A stretch of DNA of 30,219 nucleotides. It comes from a virus. Taxonomy: Duplodnaviria > Heunggongvirae > Uroviricota > Caudoviricetes. Shown here one piece after another: positions 629 to 9,884 of the stretch (position 1 is the first letter of the stretch; the number at the start of each line of letters is the position of its first letter). The stretch is taken from positions 1-30,219 of IMG/VR virus record IMGVR_UViG_2563366798_000006. One strand, 5' to 3'. The translations under genes were made by a program, and so were the position numbers. The notes under the pieces are model-generated. The model was not told the DNA's origin, did not search any database, and saw nothing but the letters and a program-made list of their open reading frames with translations.

Positions 629-900
629 GTATTCGTATTGAAATTGGCGAACGTTATGTCGTTACCAGTGACAGCTTTCAGTTTATTCTCCACGAGAAAA
701 AGAGAGCGGAAAGCGGTAAAAACGCCGGTCAGGAATGGCTGGCGGTGGTTGGTTATTACCCGAAATTAAGCCAGCTCGTTTCCGGCCTGATGCATCACGA
801 TATTCTGACCGGAAGCGCAAAATCTTTTGCTGATTTAAACGCGCAGGTTGAGCAACTCAGCAAGCGTTGTTCAGAGGCTTTTGGCTCATATGGCCGTTAA
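625..900 (+). CDS. P2-family early hypothetical protein (orf83-like position)
   Basis: GGAGA SD 5 nt upstream of ATG 625. Start overlaps the preceding stop and its 3' end overlaps the gene A start. Confidence 0.5.
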   Translation: MSIRIEIGERYVVTSDSFQFILHEKKRAESGKNAGQEWLAVVGYYPKLSQLVSGLMHHDILTGSAKSFADLNAQVEQLSKRCSEAFGSYGR

Positions 901-3166
901 AGCCTCCGGGCGTTTTGTCCCTCCGTCAGCATTTGCCGCAGGCACCGGTAAGGCGTTTACCGGTGCTTATGCATGGAACGCGCCACGCGAGGCTGTCGGG
1001 CGCGAAAGACCTCTTACACGTGACGAGATGCGTCAGGTGCAAGGTGTTTTATCCACGATTAACCGCCTGCCTTACTTTTTGCGCTCGCTGTTTACTTCAC
1101 GCTATGACTACATCCGGCGCAATAAAAGCCCGGTACACGGGTTTTATTTCCTCACATCCACTTTTCAGCGTCGTTTATGGCCGCGCATTGAGCGCGTGAA
1201 TCAGCGCCATGAAATGAACACCGACGCGTCGTTACTGTTTCTGGCAGAGCGTGACCACTATGCGCGCCTGCCGGGAATGAATGACAAGGAGCTGAAAAAA
1301 TTTGCCGCCCGTATCTCATCGCAGCTTTTCATGATGTATGAGGAACTCAGCGATGCCTGGGTGGATGCGCATGGCGAAAAAGAATCGCTGTTTACGGATG
1401 AGGCGCAGGCTCACCTCTATGGTCATGTTGCTGGCGCTGCACGTGCTTTCAATATTTCCCCGCTCTACTGGAAAAAATACCGTAAAGGACAGATGACCAC
1501 GAGGCAGGCATATTCTGCCATTGCCCGTCTGTTTAACGATGAGTGGTGGACTCATCAGCTTAAAGGCCAGCGTATGCGCTGGCATGAGGCGTTACTGATC
1601 GCTGTCGGGGAGGTCAATAAAGACCGTTCTCCTTATGCCAGTAAACATGCCATTCGTGATGTGCGTGCACGCCGCCAGGCAAATCTGGAATTTCTTAAAT
1701 CGTGTGACCTTGAAAACAGGGAAACCGGCGAGCGCATCGACCTTATCAGTAAGGTGATGGGCAGTATTTCTAATCCTGAAATTCGCCGGATGGAGCTGAT
1801 GAACACCATCGCCGGTATTGAGCGTTACGCCGCCGCAGAGGGTGATGTGGGGATGTTTATCACGCTGACCGCGCCGTCAAAGTATCACCCGACACGTCAG
1901 GTTGGAAAAGGCGAAAATAAAACCGTCCAGCTTAATCACGGCTGGAACGATGAGGCATTTAATCCAAAGGATGCGCAGCGTTATCTCTGCCGTATCTGGA
2001 GCCTGATGCGCACGGCATTCAAGGATAATGATTTACAGGTCTACGGTTTGCGAGTCGTCGAGCCACACCACGACGGAACGCCGCACTGGCATATGATGCT
2101 TTTTTGTAATCCACGCCAGCGTAACCAGATTATCGAAATCATGCGTCGCTATGCGCTCAAAGAGGATGGCGACGAAAGAGGAGCCGCGCGAAACCGTTTT
2201 CAGGCAAAACACCTTAACCGGGGCGGTGCTGCGGGATATATCGCGAAATACATTTCAAAAAATATCGACGGCTATGCACTGGATGGTCAGCTCGATAACG
2301 ATACCGGCAGACCGCTGAAAGATACTGCGGCGGCTGTTACCGCATGGGCGTCAACGTGGCGCATCCCGCAATTTAAAACGGTTGGCCTGCCGACAATGGG
2401 AGCTTACCGTGAGCTACGTAAATTGCCTCGCGGCGTCAGTATTGCTGATGAGTTTGACGAACGCGTCGAGGCTGCTCGCGCTGCCGCAGACAGTGGTGAT
2501 TTTGCGTTGTATATCAGCGCGCAGGGCGGGGCAAATGTCCCGCGCGATTGTCAGACTGTCAGGGTCGCCCGTAGCCCGTCGGATGACGTTAACGAGTACG
2601 AGGAAGAAGTCGAGAGAGTGGTCGGCATTTACGCGCCGCATCTCGGCGCGCGTCATATTCATATCACCAGAACGACGGACTGGCGCATTGTGCCGAAAGT
2701 TCCGGTCGTTGAGCCTTTGACTTTAAAAAGCGGCATCGCCGCGCCTCGGAGTCCTGTCAATAACTGTGGAAAGCTCACCGGCGGTAATACTTCGTTACCG
2801 GCCCCCTCGCCTTCTGAGCACGCCGCAGCAGTGCTTAATCTGGTTGATGACGGTGTTATCGAATGGAATGACCCGGAGGTCGTGAGGACGCTCAGGGGTG
2901 CATTAAAACACGGCCTGAAAATACCAAATCGTCAGCAAAGAAACGGAAGCCCGTTAAAACCACATGAAATAGCACCGTCGGCCAGGCTGACCCGGTCGGA
3001 ACGATTGCAAATTACCCGTATCCGCGTTGATCTCGCTCAGAACGGTATCAGGCCGCAACGATGGGAGCTTGAGGCGCTGGCGCGTGGCGCGACCGTAAAT
3101 TATGACGGGAAACCTTTCACTTATCAGGTCGCTGATGATTGGCCGGGATTTTTGTTACCCATTTGA
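890..3166 (+). CDS. A: Rolling-circle replication initiator protein A (HUH endonuclease)
   Basis: Product contains PHWHMMLF (HUH-type His motif) and GYIAKYISK (paired catalytic tyrosines Y-x3-Y), as in P2 gpA. Start placed at ATG 890 (MAVKASGRF...); the ORF track's 848 is a TTG. Confidence 0.88.
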   Translation: MAVKASGRFVPPSAFAAGTGKAFTGAYAWNAPREAVGRERPLTRDEMRQVQGVLSTINRLPYFLRSLFTSRYDYIRRNKSPVHGFYFLTSTFQRRLWPRIERVNQRHEMNTDASLLFLAERDHYARLPGMNDKELKKFAARISSQLFMMYEELSDAWVDAHGEKESLFTDEAQAHLYGHVAGAARAFNISPLYWKKYRKGQMTTRQAYSAIARLFNDEWWTHQLKGQRMRWHEALLIAVGEVNKDRSPYASKHAIRDVRARRQANLEFLKSCDLENRETGERIDLISKVMGSISNPEIRRMELMNTIAGIERYAAAEGDVGMFITLTAPSKYHPTRQVGKGENKTVQLNHGWNDEAFNPKDAQRYLCRIWSLMRTAFKDNDLQVYGLRVVEPHHDGTPHWHMMLFCNPRQRNQIIEIMRRYALKEDGDERGAARNRFQAKHLNRGGAAGYIAKYISKNIDGYALDGQLDNDTGRPLKDTAAAVTAWASTWRIPQFKTVGLPTMGAYRELRKLPRGVSIADEFDERVEAARAAADSGDFALYISAQGGANVPRDCQTVRVARSPSDDVNEYEEEVERVVGIYAPHLGARHIHITRTTDWRIVPKVPVVEPLTLKSGIAAPRSPVNNCGKLTGGNTSLPAPSPSEHAAAVLNLVDDGVIEWNDPEVVRTLRGALKHGLKIPNRQQRNGSPLKPHEIAPSARLTRSERLQITRIRVDLAQNGIRPQRWELEALARGATVNYDGKPFTYQVADDWPGFLLPI

Positions 3167-3426
3167 GTAAAAATACAGCGTGATTTTATATGTCTTTGAA
3201 TGGATTATGCGAAGCACCTCTAAGGTAGATGAGGAGCAATAGCGTGTTGAATCAGAAGGCTAAATTGTATTGAATCGTTAGCATGTAATTGAAGGCAGCT
3301 ATTTGATTCGAGTCATAAAAGAGCATCTATTTCGGTTAATAAAACCATTGCGAGTGACTTTATGTCGAAGCATAATTCATCTCGAGCGAAGTCTTGCTAG
3401 TCTTTCATCGGATTGATGACGGGCGC

Positions 3427-3456
3427 AAAAAAACCACCCTGGCAGGTGGTTTTTTT
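3427..3456. terminator. Bidirectional intrinsic terminator (A-tract / GC stem / T-tract)
   Basis: AAAAAAACCACC-CTGGCA-GGTGGTTTTTTT: 6-bp GC-rich stem ACCACC/GGTGGT flanked by A7 and T7 runs, so it can terminate transcripts on both strands. Confidence 0.6.
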
Positions 3457-3468
3457 GTTTGAAGCATA

Positions 3469-3582
3469 CTAAAGAAAAATACTTACATGGATATTACTGA
3501 CGTTTACTGACAAACCACTCGGACTACCATATGGATAGCCAAAGAGGGCCAGAACGAGAATGCAGTAATAGCACTTCTTCAT
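3469..3582 (-). CDS. Candidate small ORF (37 aa, MKKCYYCILVLALFGYPYGSPSGLSVNVSNIHVSIFL)
   Basis: Minus-strand ATG at 3582-3580 preceded by a perfect AGGAGG SD (spacer CGAT). Stop TAG at 3471-3469, 12 nt before the terminator hairpin. Hydrophobic N-terminus. Not in the ORF track because it is under 60 aa. Confidence 0.25.
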   Translation of the reverse strand: MKKCYYCILVLALFGYPYGSPSGLSVNVSNIHVSIFL

Positions 3583-4238
3583 ATCGCCTCCTGTAAGCAG
3601 AGGGCAATTTCCGCCGATATATGCGCTTCTAAGGCGGAGTGACTATTGAGCGAAGTCTTGCCCTGAAATAATGCTCTGTTTAAACGCAAAGTGATCTGGC
3701 ATATCACTGAACAGAGAACCTGAACAACACAACATATAGTATGTCGTTGTTTCTGGTTGCATTTTATGTTGTGTAATACTGGTTTTGCATCAAGGATGTT
3801 TGAGCTTTTTTTGATATAGCTCAAAGTAAAAAGCAGAGACTACGGATGATAAGGTCTTGAAAGCAATGTAAATTTTTTAAAGTTGTGAGTGGCTAGAAAT
3901 GCACAGTTTCAATATGGCGGATTTAAACAAGTAATTAAAAATAGCGCCATAAATTCCAATAAAATCATTATGTTGCGTTTTCTGTGGAAACTGCGGTGAC
4001 TCTGAAATTTTCTTTTAGTGTCGCTGAGGTTTAACAACTCGCTGCGCAAGTAGTTAGTGTTTTTTTAACTCAATATCCTGATTTATAAGGTTTTTTATAA
4101 ATCGTGGGCTGATTGCGCGTATTCATCTCGTGTTATCAGCAAAGATAAGCGCTATATGCAAAACTGAATGCATATATGATGTCGAAAATGTTATGGGAAA
4201 ACGTGGATTAGTGTTATAGTAATGGCTGAAAAACAGCC

Positions 4239-4267
4239 TTGACATAAAATAACAACTGTGATATGGC
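4239..4267 (+). promoter_or_regulatory. Putative sigma70 promoter for the ImmA-like gene
   Basis: TTGACA (4239-4244), 17-bp spacer, then TGaTATGGC (TG at 4259-4260, hexamer 4262-4267), about 37 bp upstream of the ATG. The -10 is imperfect. Confidence 0.35.
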
Positions 4268-4303
4268 TGTGCATACTTAACTTTTTTAACGTAGGAGGCA
4301 ACC

Positions 4304-4789
4304 ATGAGCTATGCAGCTAAAAAACTGCTTGACCGCTATTGGGATCGCCGACTACCTGTCGATCCGTTTAAGCTTGCTAAAGCGTGGGGTGCTCGTGTTG
4401 AAGCACTTGAGGAATCGGCTTATAACAACGATGGGTTAAGCGGTCTGGCTGTCATCAAAAAGGGTGTCCATAGGATTTATTTTGATTCTAGTGAACATTC
4501 TAATCGTCAACGTTTTACTGTTGCACACGAGTTAGGTCATCATGTGCTGGGGCATACCCAGGACGGAGAGTACCATCGGGATAATGTCGGGAATTATTCA
4601 ACAGGTGCTCGTGATTACCGTGAGGTTGAAGCAAACAAGTTTGCTGCTGAGTTGTTAATGCCTGAGTCTGCTATACGTCAATTGGTATCCAGAGAAGGTA
4701 TTGATAGCACTTTGAGATTAGCAAGCATCTTTAATGTATCAGAAGCCGCTATGCATTGGCGCTTAAAGAGCTTAGGAATGGCTTATTAA
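4304..4789 (+). CDS. ImmA/IrrE-family (COG2856, M78-type) zinc metallopeptidase, no N-terminal HTH
   Basis: AGGAGG SD 7 nt upstream of ATG 4304. Product has FTVAHELGHHVLGH (HEXXH zinc motif) followed by EVEANKFAAELLMPE, the hallmark ImmA/IrrE arrangement. AT-rich coding sequence. Confidence 0.8.
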   Translation: MSYAAKKLLDRYWDRRLPVDPFKLAKAWGARVEALEESAYNNDGLSGLAVIKKGVHRIYFDSSEHSNRQRFTVAHELGHHVLGHTQDGEYHRDNVGNYSTGARDYREVEANKFAAELLMPESAIRQLVSREGIDSTLRLASIFNVSEAAMHWRLKSLGMAY

Positions 4790-4855: not shown

Positions 4856-5455
4856 ATGGCTGATATTGATTTATCTGGACAGTCCCCAGAGCAAGGAACC
4901 ACTCCTAAGGGCGATTTAGATCCTGATATCCTTATAAGGCGAGATCGACGCGATGGTATAGAGCGTAGAAGTATGCGATTAGTGCTCTCTGCCGTTGTGC
5001 TTTGTTTTGCTTGTACATTTCTATGGCAGGGGCTTAACTTTGCTTTGGCTGTTGGAAATGGCTTGCTGGAAGCGAAAAGCAGTATTGCCACAGCGATAAC
5101 ACAAAAAGTAGATGCACAAACTTGTGTTTCAGCAGAAAAATGTTCTGCTTTATCTGCGGATCCGAAGATGGCTGATGAGAGGATAACACCATCTTCAGAC
5201 ACTAATAAAGTTAGAAAATCTATTTCTGGTTTATCCACCGATTGGTTATCGGCCAGTTCTCTAATAGCTATTGTTGCATTCATCCTTGGTGTGGGTTTAA
5301 CTTTGCTTTTGACTCTTCTTAAATCAGCATTTCAACACCCGACAGATAAAGACTTTAGAACAAAGTCGACATCTAATACTATTGAGTTGGCCACGCCAAT
5401 CAGTGAATTAATAATTGGTGTTCTGAATATAATTAAAGACAAACTATCTAAGTAA
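4856..5455 (+). CDS. Small membrane protein with two predicted transmembrane helices
   Basis: 199-aa product: charged N-terminus (RRDRRDGIERR), helix LVLSAVVLCFACTFLWQGLNFALAV, soluble segment, second helix LIAIVAFILGVGLTLLLTLL, amphipathic C-terminus. Its own terminator lies about 40 nt downstream. The start is sequestered in the upstream hairpin, so expression is uncertain. Confidence 0.5.
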   Translation: MADIDLSGQSPEQGTTPKGDLDPDILIRRDRRDGIERRSMRLVLSAVVLCFACTFLWQGLNFALAVGNGLLEAKSSIATAITQKVDAQTCVSAEKCSALSADPKMADERITPSSDTNKVRKSISGLSTDWLSASSLIAIVAFILGVGLTLLLTLLKSAFQHPTDKDFRTKSTSNTIELATPISELIIGVLNIIKDKLSK

Positions 5456-5496: not shown

Positions 5497-5530
5497 TCTC
5501 CAGTACTTATTGTTACTGGAGAGTATTTTT
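5497..5530 (+). terminator. Intrinsic terminator after the membrane-protein ORF
   Basis: 9-bp stem TCTCCAGTA / TACTGGAGA (5497-5505 / 5514-5522), 8-nt loop, then GTATTTTT. It sits between the convergent gene ends at 5455 and 5538. Confidence 0.45.
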
Positions 5531-5537
5531 AGTCGTT

Positions 5538-6479
5538 TTATATTTTTAATGTTAGTGAATGATATTCACGAGAGTTCACGTTCGATGTGATGTAATCGGG
5601 GGCGTTAACACCAAGAATCGCAACGAGCAATCGGCAAATTAAAGCCTGCATTTGTTGTAATATGTCATCTCCATATTGATAATTGTTAATAGTGGTAAAG
5701 CCAAGTGGTTGACCATGAAACATAGCTTCATGAAAGTTTTCATTGCGGATGTTTGTAATGTTTTTTTTGCCTGTAACCCATGATGGTCGTGGTATGCCAT
5801 AAGTTTTGCAGATCCACTTCAAGCGCCTGGAGTGATTTAGAGTCTTTTCTGTACACTTGTTCTTTTCTGCCCATGTTAAAGCAAAGCAACTATCCAGTGC
5901 CATATAAAGATACTGGAATTTTTCGAAGCTAAGGTATTGTGGGTTTTGGGATAAAAATAGTGCATGCACTATTGCTGCTATATTTATTGGTGCGTGTTTG
6001 GTTTTTTTCTCGCTAGACATGTATTTGAGTGCTAATTCTATAACCTCTTTTTCAGAACACTTGACCAGAATAAAGTCAGTTAATTTGCTGGGTTTTATTG
6101 GGGTTGCGTCTAAAAAACCGGCATCAGTAGTTGTTAATCTTATCCCTTTGAAAAAAGACAGACACCACACAGCAAAATTGAGAGTTTCTAGTGAAGATGT
6201 ATTTTTTAATTTTAGTGAGTGTGTTTTGGGTAAGCCAAATACTCGTTGGCTAAAAGGCATTGTGGATATGCCTCCATTGAGGTTATATACTTCTTGGTTT
6301 CCTGGGTATATCCAACCGTTAATAACATTTCTGTGATTGTTTATAAGATTTGTTTTTTCCGCTAGACCGGGTAAAGTAAGTAAAGAAAAATCATCAGTTT
6401 CAACGTTAACCTCTACTGGATAGTATCCAAACTCAGCTTCAATATCATTGGATTGCTGTTCGTCAACTTTACCTTGCAT
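5538..6479 (-). CDS. Hypothetical 313-aa cargo protein; candidate HEPN-like (R-N-x3-H) abortive-infection protein
   Basis: Minus-strand ATG at 6479-6477 with GGAG SD 6 nt upstream. AT-rich. Product contains IRNENFHEAMF, which fits the HEPN R-x4-6-H motif. No Walker or other motif recognised. Confidence 0.6.
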   Translation of the reverse strand: MQGKVDEQQSNDIEAEFGYYPVEVNVETDDFSLLTLPGLAEKTNLINNHRNVINGWIYPGNQEVYNLNGGISTMPFSQRVFGLPKTHSLKLKNTSSLETLNFAVWCLSFFKGIRLTTTDAGFLDATPIKPSKLTDFILVKCSEKEVIELALKYMSSEKKTKHAPINIAAIVHALFLSQNPQYLSFEKFQYLYMALDSCFALTWAEKNKCTEKTLNHSRRLKWICKTYGIPRPSWVTGKKNITNIRNENFHEAMFHGQPLGFTTINNYQYGDDILQQMQALICRLLVAILGVNAPDYITSNVNSREYHSLTLKI

Positions 6480-6716
6480 ACATTGCTCCGGTCAAAAATA
6501 GGCTCGATAATTCTCGTAAGCCTATCATGTTCGCAAAGTATCCATACCTGTGGATTTTGTAAATTTAAGTTGATTTGTCATTAAATAAGCCGTGCATGCA
6601 ACAAGTGAATGTTTTTGCATGCGTCGGGGATGCCCGTTCCGGCTGCTTGCGGTCAGAGCTGGTGCGGATCCATAGTATCTAAGCAACTGCATTAAAACCG
6701 CCCTATGAAGCGGGCG

Positions 6717-6735
6717 GGCGAGGCGGGGAAAGCAC
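6717..6735. other. cos: cos site (19-nt cohesive-end sequence of P2-type phages)
   Basis: GGCGAGGCGGGGAAAGCAC matches the P2 cohesive-end sequence as I recall it. It lies where expected, between the TO region and gene Q. Confidence 0.6.
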
Positions 6736-6904: not shown

Positions 6905-7939
6905 TCAGCCGTTGTCAGTGTCCAGTGAGTAGTTTTTAAAGCGGATGACCTCCTGATCGAGCCAGCCGTTTATCTCGCGGATCCTGTCCTGTAACGGGAT
7001 AAGCTCATTGCGGACAAAGACCTTTGCCACTTTCTCAATATCTCCCAGCGACCCGACGTTCTCCGGCTTGCCGCCCATCAACTGAAAGGGGATGCGGTGT
7101 GCGTCCAGCAGGTCAGCGGCGCTGGCTTTTTTGATATTAAAAAAATCGTCCTTCGTCGCCACTTCACTGAGGGGGATAATTTTAATGCCGTCGGCTTTCC
7201 CCTGCGGGGCATAGAGAAACAGATTTTTAAAGTTATTGCGGCCTTTCGACTTAACCATGTTTTCGCGAAGCATTTCGATATCGTTGCGATCCTGCACGGC
7301 ATCGGTGACGTACATGATGTATCCGGCATGTGCGCCATTTTCGTAATACTTGCGGCGGAACAGCGTGGCCGACTCATTCAGCCAGGCAGAGTTAAGGGCG
7401 CTGAGATATTCCGGCAGGCCGTACAGCTCCTGATTAATATCCGGCTCCAGCAGGTGAAACACGGAGCCGGGCGCGAAGGCTGTCGGCTCGTTGAAGGACG
7501 GCACCCACCAGTAAACATCCTCTTCCACACCACGGCGGGTATATTTTGCCGGTGAGGTTTCCAGTCTGATGACCTTACCGGTGGTGCTGTAACGCTTTTC
7601 CAGAAACGCATTACCGAACACCAGAAAATCCAGCACAAAGCGGCTGAAATCCTGCTGGGAAAGCCACGGATGCGGGATAAATGTCGAGGCCAGAATATTA
7701 CGTTTGACGTAAATCGGGGAGCTGTGATGCACGGCAGCACGCAGGCTTTTTGCCAGACCGGTAAAGCTGACCGGTGGCTCATACCATCTGCCGTTACTGA
7801 TGCACTCAACGTAATCCAGAATGTCACGGCGGTCGAGTACCGGCACCGGCTCACCAAAGGTGAATGCCTCCATTTTCGGGGCGCTGGCGGTCATTTTTTT
7901 TGCCGCAGGTTGCGGTGTTTTCCCTTTTTTCTTGCTCAT
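6905..7939 (-). CDS. Q: Portal (capsid portal) protein Q
   Basis: 344-aa product at the size and position of P2 gpQ, first gene after cos on the minus strand. Start overlaps the P stop (ATGA). Confidence 0.88.
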   Translation of the reverse strand: MSKKKGKTPQPAAKKMTASAPKMEAFTFGEPVPVLDRRDILDYVECISNGRWYEPPVSFTGLAKSLRAAVHHSSPIYVKRNILASTFIPHPWLSQQDFSRFVLDFLVFGNAFLEKRYSTTGKVIRLETSPAKYTRRGVEEDVYWWVPSFNEPTAFAPGSVFHLLEPDINQELYGLPEYLSALNSAWLNESATLFRRKYYENGAHAGYIMYVTDAVQDRNDIEMLRENMVKSKGRNNFKNLFLYAPQGKADGIKIIPLSEVATKDDFFNIKKASAADLLDAHRIPFQLMGGKPENVGSLGDIEKVAKVFVRNELIPLQDRIREINGWLDQEVIRFKNYSLDTDNG

Positions 7940-9711
7940 CAGTAAAACTCCAGAATGGTGGATGTCAGCGGGGTGCTGATACCGGCGGTGAGTGGCTCAT
8001 TTAACAGGGCGTGCATGGTCGCCCAGGCGAGGTCGGCGTGGCTGGCTTCCTCGCTGCGGCTGGCCTCATAGGTGGCGCTGCGTCCGCTGCTGGTCATGGT
8101 CTTGCGGATAGCCATAAACGAGCTGGTGATGTCGGTGGCGCTGACGTCATATTCCAGACAGCCACGACGGATAACGTCTTTTGCCTTGAGCACCATTGCG
8201 GTTTTCATTTCCGGCGTGTAGCGGATATCGCGCGCGGCGGGATAGAACGAGCGCACGAGCTGGAACACGCCGATACCGAGGCCGGTGGCATCAATTCCGA
8301 TGTATTCGACGTTGTATTTTTCGGTGAGTTTGCGGATGGATTCAGCCTGGGTGGCAAAGTCCATGCCTTTCCACTGGTGACGCTCAAGTATTCTGAATTT
8401 GCCACCGGCCACCACCGGCGGTGCCAGCACCACGCATCCGGCGCTGTCGCCACGGTGTGACGGGTCGTAACCAATCCATACCGGACGGGAGCCGAATGGA
8501 TTCGCGGCAAACGGCGCATAGTCTTCCCATTCTTCCAGCGTGTCGACCATGCAGCGTTGCAGCTCCTCGAACGGGAACACCGATGCCTTGTCGTCAACAA
8601 ATTCACACATGAACAGGTTTTTAAAATCGTCGGCGCTGTTTTCGCGTTTGAGCTGCTCAATGTCGAACAGCGTGCAGCCACCTTTCAGGGCGTCCTCAAT
8701 GGTGACAATCTGCCGCCACTGGCCGTCCGCACAGAGAAGCCCACCGGCAAGGGCGTTATGACTGACGTCGATTTCCACGCGTTCAGCGGCGCTGGCGCGT
8801 CCCCGGTTAAACAGTTCACCCGACCAGAACGGGTAGGCGTCGTGCGCCAGCGTGGACGGGGTGGAGAAATAGGTCGAGCGCAGGTGACTCTGTGAGGCCA
8901 TACCTGATGCCACCTTACGCAGTACCTGAAAATTCGGGATCCAGAAAATCTCGTCGACGTACAGGTCGCCGTTATGGCTCTGTGCGGTGTTGGAGTTGGT
9001 GCCGAGAAAAATCAGTTTTGCGCCGTTATTGCCCAGGACAATCGGGTCACCGGTCAGGTCAACGTCAACCAGCCGGGCAAAGGCGATGATGTATTCGCGG
9101 AACACATACGCCTGCGTTTTACTGGCCGACAGAAAAATCTGGTTATGACCGGTTTTCAGGGCGCGCAGCAGCGCCTCGCGGGAAAAATAAAACGTCGCGC
9201 CAATCTGGCGGGATTTCAGGATATCGCGGATGCGGTGCTCAAGCCCGGCGCGATACCAGTGCAACTGATAGTCGAAAGACTGCTCAAAGAAAATCTGCTC
9301 CAGCTTTTCGATGGCCTCGTCACTGAAAAAATTCTTTTTCGGTTTGCGACGCCCGCCTTTGTTGCGGTTAGCGACGTTCGGATTAAGGTCTGCCTCGTTG
9401 CCGGTCTGACTGTAACGGTTGACCCGTGCCAGTCGTTCAATCTGGCGTCCCAGCAGGTCAATTTCCTTGAAGTCACCGCCGGTTTTCTGCGGTTTGATGA
9501 TGAGCTGGGTCAGCCGCGCTTCCAGACTCATTTCGACACGGCTGATGGGGGCAACGCTGTCCCAGCCGTCGCGCTGTTTCCAGCTCTGCACCGTCGGGCG
9601 TTTCATCTGCAATATGGCGGCAATCTGCGGCACGGAAAACCCCTGCCAGTACAGCAGCGCCGCCTGACGACGCGGGTCGTGTAAAAGAGTGGTGTCTGTG
9701 GTGATGGTCAT
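7939..9711 (-). CDS. P: Terminase large (ATPase) subunit P
   Basis: About 590-aa product. Start placed at the internal Met (MTITTDTT...) with GAGGT SD 5 nt upstream. Synteny Q-P divergent from O. Confidence 0.88.
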   Translation of the reverse strand: MTITTDTTLLHDPRRQAALLYWQGFSVPQIAAILQMKRPTVQSWKQRDGWDSVAPISRVEMSLEARLTQLIIKPQKTGGDFKEIDLLGRQIERLARVNRYSQTGNEADLNPNVANRNKGGRRKPKKNFFSDEAIEKLEQIFFEQSFDYQLHWYRAGLEHRIRDILKSRQIGATFYFSREALLRALKTGHNQIFLSASKTQAYVFREYIIAFARLVDVDLTGDPIVLGNNGAKLIFLGTNSNTAQSHNGDLYVDEIFWIPNFQVLRKVASGMASQSHLRSTYFSTPSTLAHDAYPFWSGELFNRGRASAAERVEIDVSHNALAGGLLCADGQWRQIVTIEDALKGGCTLFDIEQLKRENSADDFKNLFMCEFVDDKASVFPFEELQRCMVDTLEEWEDYAPFAANPFGSRPVWIGYDPSHRGDSAGCVVLAPPVVAGGKFRILERHQWKGMDFATQAESIRKLTEKYNVEYIGIDATGLGIGVFQLVRSFYPAARDIRYTPEMKTAMVLKAKDVIRRGCLEYDVSATDITSSFMAIRKTMTSSGRSATYEASRSEEASHADLAWATMHALLNEPLTAGISTPLTSTILEFY

Positions 9712-9884
9712 GAATACCTCGCCGTGATGAATACACGGCAAGGCTACTGAGTCGCGTCCCGCGATTCGCTAAGGTGCTGTTGTGTCAGTGATAAGCCATC
9801 CGGGACTGATGGCGGAGGATGCGCATCGTCGGGAAACTGATGCCGACATGTGACTCCTCTAATCACTATTCAGGACTCCTGACA

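Follow-up and report, generated by a model that had tools for sequence, protein, structure and literature searches.

The last cargo gene before the cos site of a P2-like prophage raises a simple question, namely what its product does for the element that carries it. The window (the whole stretch of 30,219 nucleotides that was analysed) is a P2-like (Peduovirus) prophage, and its stretch 3100-6735 matches the end of the Peduovirus Salmonella phage MET_P1_103_31 at 99% identity. In the variable region of P2-EC67 the protein goes by the name 'ORF313', and its gene sits in the P2 gpA-gpQ variable hotspot. Rousset et al. showed that this hotspot carries defence systems, together with non-defence cargo; in P2 itself, it is occupied by the exclusion genes old and tin. 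The features of the locus are listed below.

848-3166, plus strand: Phage_GPA replication protein (domain match)
4304-4789, plus strand: ImmA/IrrE gene (Peptidase_M78, E 3.8e-21), on the strand opposite to ORF313
5497..5522, no strand: stable hairpin (RNA fold -17 kcal/mol, z -6.5)
5538..6479, minus strand: ORF313 coding sequence (RefSeq WP_001517496.1, 'hypothetical protein'; ORF313 family of P2-EC67; phrog_5937)
6486..6489, minus strand: ribosome-binding site GGAG, 6 nt 5' of the ORF313 ATG
6554..6581, minus strand: candidate sigma-70 promoter ATGACA-16-CAAAAT, 9/12; weak, as promoter-like matches in the region are not above those in shuffles
6717..6735, plus strand: P2 cos 19-mer GGCGAGGCGGGGAAAGCAC, exact, 238 bp upstream of the ORF313 ATG
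6905-7939, minus strand: portal protein (domain match)
7939-9741, minus strand: terminase
9819, start: scaffold gene

A preliminary description of this DNA had reported a 313-aa gene encoding IRNENFH that is AT-rich, has a good ribosome-binding site, runs opposite to the ImmA gene and lies in the hotspot, and each of these points holds. The gene has an ATG start and the motif occupies residues 244-250, followed by E251. GC content is 33-39% in the gene, compared with 52-60% in the flanking phage backbone, and the whole gpA-gpQ insert is AT-rich (33-43%). The exact cos 19-mer marks the end of the virion DNA, which makes ORF313 the final cargo gene before cos. In P2-like phages, the ~215 bp between cos and the start of ORF313 are strongly conserved, exceeding even the coding sequence, and represent the cos flank; the promoter of ORF313 must share DNA with this packaging region. 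A palindrome, GCATGCAA-N13-TTGCATGC, is contained in 6500-6735. At its other end, ORF313 is convergent with a gene for a 199-aa protein, and the hairpin between the two is likely to be a bidirectional terminator that ends the ORF313 transcript.

The neighbouring cargo consists of the ImmA/IrrE M78 metallopeptidase (161 aa; top PADLOC match capP, E 1e-30) and the 199-aa protein (4856-5455, plus strand; phrog_8096), which has weak, sub-threshold similarity to transmembrane-protein families. There is no HTH/ImmR-like partner ORF upstream of ImmA. In Table S5A of Rousset et al., the present arrangement appears as 'hypothetical + hypothetical + Peptidase_M78' (WP_001517496 + WP_024165494 + WP_000119270); the same table contains WP_024165494 + WP_000119270 without WP_001517496, and also pairs this ImmA with other 'hypothetical' pairs. 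Because the ImmA pair is found there both with and without ORF313, the two are considered to be separate modules; a functional link between them was rejected, and the ImmA and 199-aa genes look like a two-gene module of their own. The ~1.1 kb of AT-rich sequence between gpA and ImmA (3167-4303) contains no ORF longer than 81 aa and gives only sub-threshold Rfam matches (RNAI-like at 3371-3535, E 0.03-0.5); it may be a non-coding RNA or regulatory region, or the remains of decayed genes.

The suggestion that ORF313 could be an RNase of HEPN type came from the motif, and the features of the protein that bear on it are as follows.

5580..6059, minus strand: C-terminal all-alpha HEPN-like domain, residues ~141-300 (helices 143-155, 163-178, 184-205, 216-227, 241-254 and 273-288)
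5727..5747, minus strand: R245-N246-E-N-F-H250-E251, putative HEPN catalytic motif of Rx4H form in which a polar N follows the Arg, located where its helix ends C-terminally
5823..5834, minus strand: H216-x2-R219, conserved in 55/56 and 53/56 homologs, in the insert between HEPN helices 2 and 3
5922..5924, minus strand: E186 codon; invariant acidic residue at a helix start two helices upstream of the motif, candidate for the HEPN 'helix-2' acidic residue
6060..6443, minus strand: N-terminal alpha/beta domain, residues ~13-140, with near-invariant W56, R79, T86, H87, G112, R114 and D135

The motif alone is not significant, since among 20,000 shuffles of the protein R[NHQD]x3H occurs in 4.0% and Rx4H in 21%. 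It is raised above chance by its conservation across homologs, the first of the tests that could have overturned the proposal. R245, N246, H250 and E251 are invariant in 33 homologs with at least 45% identity. In a broader set of 56 members, reaching down to 26% identity, H250 and an acidic residue (E/D) at position 251 are present in all 56, R245 in 55 and N246 in 52. Just 27 of the 313 positions are conserved at 90% or above in this set; all four motif residues are among them, and residues 241-262 form the most conserved segment of the protein. The near-invariant set in the N-terminal half includes H87 and G112, each found in 56/56.

The predicted structure, the second such test, places the motif in an alpha-helical, HEPN-like domain. 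Judged by the features set out for the superfamily (Anantharaman et al. 2013, PMC3710099), the C-terminal domain is modelled as an all-alpha, four-helix up-and-down core; the Rx4-6H motif closes helix 3, ahead of the loop that leads into helix 4; and the Arg is followed directly by a polar residue of the N/D/H type. The high-confidence model has R244..H249 at the end of helix 239-250. HEPN proteins also have a conserved upstream acidic residue in helix 2, often in an Ex3[KR] context and spatially near the motif (PMC3710099). The invariant E186, at the start of helix 184-205, is a candidate for this role outside such a context. In addition, HEPNs of the AbiV/AF0298 type carry an alternative catalytic His in the insert between helices 2 and 3 (PMC3710099), and it is possible that H216 and R219 are extra active-site or pocket residues. 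The N-terminal domain always co-occurs with the HEPN domain, and the high pTM of the predicted model suggests that the two form one rigid unit. Conservation and fold together support the HEPN interpretation, and it is very probable that the protein has a HEPN fold with a functional-looking site.

Profile searches against HEPN and Abi families, which had also been proposed as a check, gave no link to any named family. Scans of the ORF313 protein and of the 33 + 56 homologs with Pfam, NCBIfam and PADLOC gave no significant family, curated HEPN families included. When the 89 homologs were scanned singly, HEPN_RiboL-PSP (E 0.074) and HEPN_Apea (E 0.15) appeared below threshold, in one member each and amid noise. 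Abi_2 (Pfam PF07751) and AbiV had no matches among these 89. For ApeA there was no PADLOC match, and the Pfam HEPN_Apea hit concerns one of the 56 members. Neither RnlA/LsoA nor HepT/MntA gave a family match, and no conserved adjacent antitoxin (RnlB/LsoB or MNT) was seen at 27 loci. PD-T4-2, PD-T7-3 (DARNA) and the other PADLOC HEPN systems yielded no PADLOC family for the ORF313 protein and nothing relevant in the 56 members. As no search linked it to them, ORF313 is not regarded as a member of Abi_2/AbiD/AbiF, RnlA/LsoA or ApeA. An hhalign comparison of the C-domain profile with one bona fide HEPN_MAE_28990 protein gave a probability of 0.3%, which is uninformative with a one-sequence template.

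Structural databases were similarly silent: Foldseek with the first of two structure models against the PDB and BFVD returned nothing at E<=0.001, and when PDB sequences were searched with full-length, divergent and C-domain profiles, all matches stayed below threshold. Among these, six of the nine PDB matches of the divergent family profile (E 0.003-0.6) were to RyR repeats, over residues ~13-60 (6300-6443); a RyR reading of the first 60 residues was set aside, as the short helix that the AF2 models place at 39-47 is at odds with such a repeat. The motif region (residues ~240-280, NIRNENFHEAMFHGQPLGF...) resembles the N-terminus of the E. coli ribonucleotide reductase R2 protein NrdB (TKNDQLKEPMFFGQPVNV...) at E 0.018, probably by chance, and a match to ribose/galactose isomerase was taken as chance or unexplained.

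What does exist is a large family of its own. A collection of 5.8 billion proteins contains 603 relatives, and an exhaustive profile search recovered 655 representatives at 50% identity, nearly all of 290-320 aa and matching from end to end. When profiles of the C-domain only and the N-domain only were run against the same collection, just the ORF313 family and its fragments came back, so there is no bridge to named families and no sign of domain shuffling. The ORF313 family is thus an unnamed, Proteobacteria-wide group of ~300-aa two-domain proteins; its PHROG family, phrog_5937, has no annotated function. Partial-length representatives were considered as alternative architectures and rejected, being frameshifted copies with nonsense tails. 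Truncated or frameshifted copies are common in public genomes (132/144 aa in Salmonella Infantis, 246-247 aa in E. coli, nonsense-tailed in GC-rich genomes; clusters include P0123, P0129, P0130, P0157 and P0232), which either a fitness cost or sequencing errors could account for.

The fold, the solitary cargo position on mobile elements and the location in the hotspot make a role as an abortive-infection RNase plausible. RNase activity of the protein is probable. Confidence in a defence role is lower, though the balance tips slightly in its favour, and the same holds for the full reading, in which ORF313 would be a single-gene anti-phage abortive-infection RNase of HEPN type that is latent until a phage cue. 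The mechanism is proposed by analogy with ApeA, DARNA/PD-T7-3, HepS and PrrC, which work as single-protein HEPN defences. In a lysogen the protein would be made but stay latent, probably assembled into a HEPN-HEPN dimer or a larger oligomer, with the N-domain and/or the H216/R219 insert holding back its RNase activity until a superinfecting phage supplies a cue. The composite, metal-free Rx4H site would then cut RNA, most likely tRNA anticodon loops or mRNA; H216, R219 and residues of the N-domain may contribute to the active site or to a regulatory pocket. Translation would halt and the infection be aborted, protecting the lysogen population and the prophage. A more specific version, held with somewhat less than even confidence, is that the family is an unrecognised single-gene immune system in which the N-domain (T86-H87, R114, D135) and H216/R219 sense a new cue, be it a small molecule (as for ApeA) or a phage protein or nucleic acid, and switch on a HEPN tRNase. 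If so, it would be a portable abortive-infection module for P2-like prophages, ICEs and plasmids across Proteobacteria.

The literature searched contains no activity or phenotype data for the family, and no mention of WP_001517496 or of ORF313 of P2-EC67 was found there. Rousset et al. list ORF313 in Table S5A only as 'hypothetical', outside the systems that they cloned; their 'Putative HEPN' (pFR103) is an unrelated, longer protein. DefensePredictor led to the validation of four new HEPN-containing systems in E. coli. In the part of its supplementary sequences that was compared there is no ORF313-family match, and DS-40, which is of similar length (311 aa), is an unrelated membrane protein.

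The contexts in which the family occurs help to weigh the alternatives. The ORF313 allele is present in 47 of 5,426 complete E. coli genomes, always on the chromosome and annotated as 'hypothetical protein'. In P2-like phages the gene always adjoins cos and its companions vary: ORF226 and ORF73 in P2-EC67 and vB_EcoM-720R8, two small ORFs only in Yersinia phage VB-YPM-4, and a different set in vB_EcoM-613R3. Elsewhere, the homolog is a moron between capsid and portal genes in an Acinetobacter prophage; is flanked by integrase/AlpA and Trb conjugation genes in an ICE of Xanthomonas, Achromobacter, Thauera and Albidiferax; has resolvase neighbours in Pseudomonas; lies beside Gabija in a P. aeruginosa island; and has HD-CE/HATPase, REase-like and PDC-S49 genes among its other neighbours. 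Six plasmids carry homologs. As to enrichment in defence islands or mobile-element hotspots, the P2 hotspot, the Gabija and PDC-S49 neighbours and the cargo positions on ICEs and prophages point one way, whereas nine of ten unannotated neighbours without a PADLOC match and the Aeromonas copies described below point the other. It has also been considered that ORF313 serves the mobile element offensively, either as an anti-defence enzyme (for example by degrading cyclic-oligonucleotide signals, as HEPN domains of the Csm6 type are able to) or as an RNase that reshapes host or phage RNA in the phage's own cycle. This is unlikely, as the gene occupies the old/tin exclusion hotspot rather than an early or anti-defence region, forms its own promoter-proximal unit apart from the late genes, and is also found in chromosomal, non-phage contexts and next to Gabija or PDC-S49; moreover, no CARF or other signal-binding domain was detected.

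Two contexts deserve separate mention. In Aeromonas, the copies lie amid housekeeping genes, always at one chromosomal site, where an AlkZ-like (PF06224) gene in the same orientation ends 105 bp upstream of the homolog (L008-L012; homolog at 6001-6963 in L008-L010, 4585-5547 in L011 and 1878-2840 in L012); unlike all the others, this context is apparently non-mobile. In Allosphingosinicella (L038, 4324-10647), the homolog is part of a tight co-directional cluster with ORFs of 549, 307, 576 and 361 aa, separated by gaps or overlaps of no more than ~12 bp. The 549-, 307- and 576-aa ORFs have no Pfam or PADLOC match, and the cluster is possibly a larger uncharacterised system.

An addiction function would also suit a gene that is always on or near mobile elements: HEPN domains are common as toxins of toxin-antitoxin pairs (HepT/MntA, RnlA/RnlB), and the frequency of frameshifted and truncated copies in databases is what would be expected of a costly gene. 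ORF313 would then be a toxin that stabilises its element and is neutralised by an unrecognised antitoxin (a small RNA or tiny peptide) or by its own N-domain, with no sensing of phage. This is unlikely. Across 27 diverse loci there is no common neighbouring ORF of at least 30 aa, save where loci share the whole element. The one candidate peptide, a 55-aa ORF upstream (6525-6692), was rejected, as indels break its frame in relatives and the conserved DNA there is cos flank. Neither tandem repeats nor a relevant, antitoxin-like Rfam family were found near ORF313, and the N-domain has no MNT/NTase signature. A two-gene or RNA-antitoxin system is disfavoured by the lack of a common neighbour, the broken ORF, and the absence of repeats and of a known RNA family. 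ORF313 forms an autonomous module of a single gene that has an RBS and a likely terminator of its own and lacks any conserved partner.

The protein itself might have the HEPN-like fold and yet be no RNase, acting instead as a ligand-binding or regulatory protein or as an enzyme whose active site is mainly that of the N-domain (T86-H87, R114, D135). Precedents are the non-catalytic HEPN folds of MtlR and of NTase-fused HEPNs; the invariant polar residues are as many in the N-domain as in the HEPN domain, and the pTM points to a single rigid two-domain unit. However, non-catalytic HEPNs typically lose Rx4-6H (PMC3710099), whereas the ORF313 family retains the Arg, the polar Asn, the His and the upstream acidic residue, which makes this alternative improbable. 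Finally, the motif could have arisen by chance in a protein that has nothing to do with HEPN, as the 4% of shuffles containing the strict form and the unmatched HEPN-family profile searches might suggest; this reading is already disfavoured and is highly improbable.

If the abortive-infection reading is confirmed, the known HEPN defences would gain a compact family, encoded in 0.94 kb, that brings a new regulatory domain and at present escapes Pfam, NCBIfam and PADLOC; one unannotated arrangement in the P2 hotspot catalogue would be accounted for, and a small, tractable model for the latency and triggering of HEPN RNases would become available. Abortive-infection RNases made of a single HEPN protein are already well established, so the gain would be an incremental one that does not change the field; ORF313 represents a new two-domain HEPN family within a well-known type of system, and will not surprise the specialist.

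How the family compares with such systems can be stated more exactly. Minimal HEPN toxins (HepT of the HepT/MntA type VII TA system; SO_3166, PDB 5yep/7ae2/8xdj; sacsin HEPN 3o10) are stand-alone domains of ~130 aa paired with an MNT antitoxin that AMPylates a Tyr in RX4HXY. In contrast, ORF313 has a fused 140-aa N-domain, no MNT neighbour and E rather than x-Y after the His, at a sequence identity of 7-10%. AbiV typically does without the canonical His (PMC3710099), which the ORF313 family retains. P2 Old, like Tin, occupies the same gpA-gpQ hotspot and is now known as an abortive tRNase (PMC12445682); it is an ABC-ATPase with a TOPRIM domain, unrelated to ORF313 in sequence and fold, and the two are alike only in position and perhaps in function. 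ApeA (Gao et al. 2020; 10.64898/2026.01.26.701840) resembles ORF313 in being a single-gene HEPN system of P2/P4 hotspots with a non-catalytic N-terminal part and a C-terminal HEPN domain, and one ORF313-family homolog is named 'Apea-like HEPN' in UniRef. It causes abortive infection by tRNA anticodon cleavage, activated through a ligand pocket between its N-domain and HEPN (10.64898/2026.01.26.701840). ApeA differs in its size (~560-580 aa) and in its mostly alpha-helical N/Mid/split-HEPN architecture, as against the 313 aa and beta-rich N-domain of ORF313. DARNA/PD-T7-3 and HepS, the latter encoded by a prophage (Gifsy-1), are HEPN tRNases consisting of one protein, which a phage cue brings out of latency (ssDNA on phage SSB and the lambda-type tail tip, respectively). 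ApeA, DARNA, HepS and PrrC all cut tRNA anticodon loops after a non-catalytic domain has sensed a phage cue.
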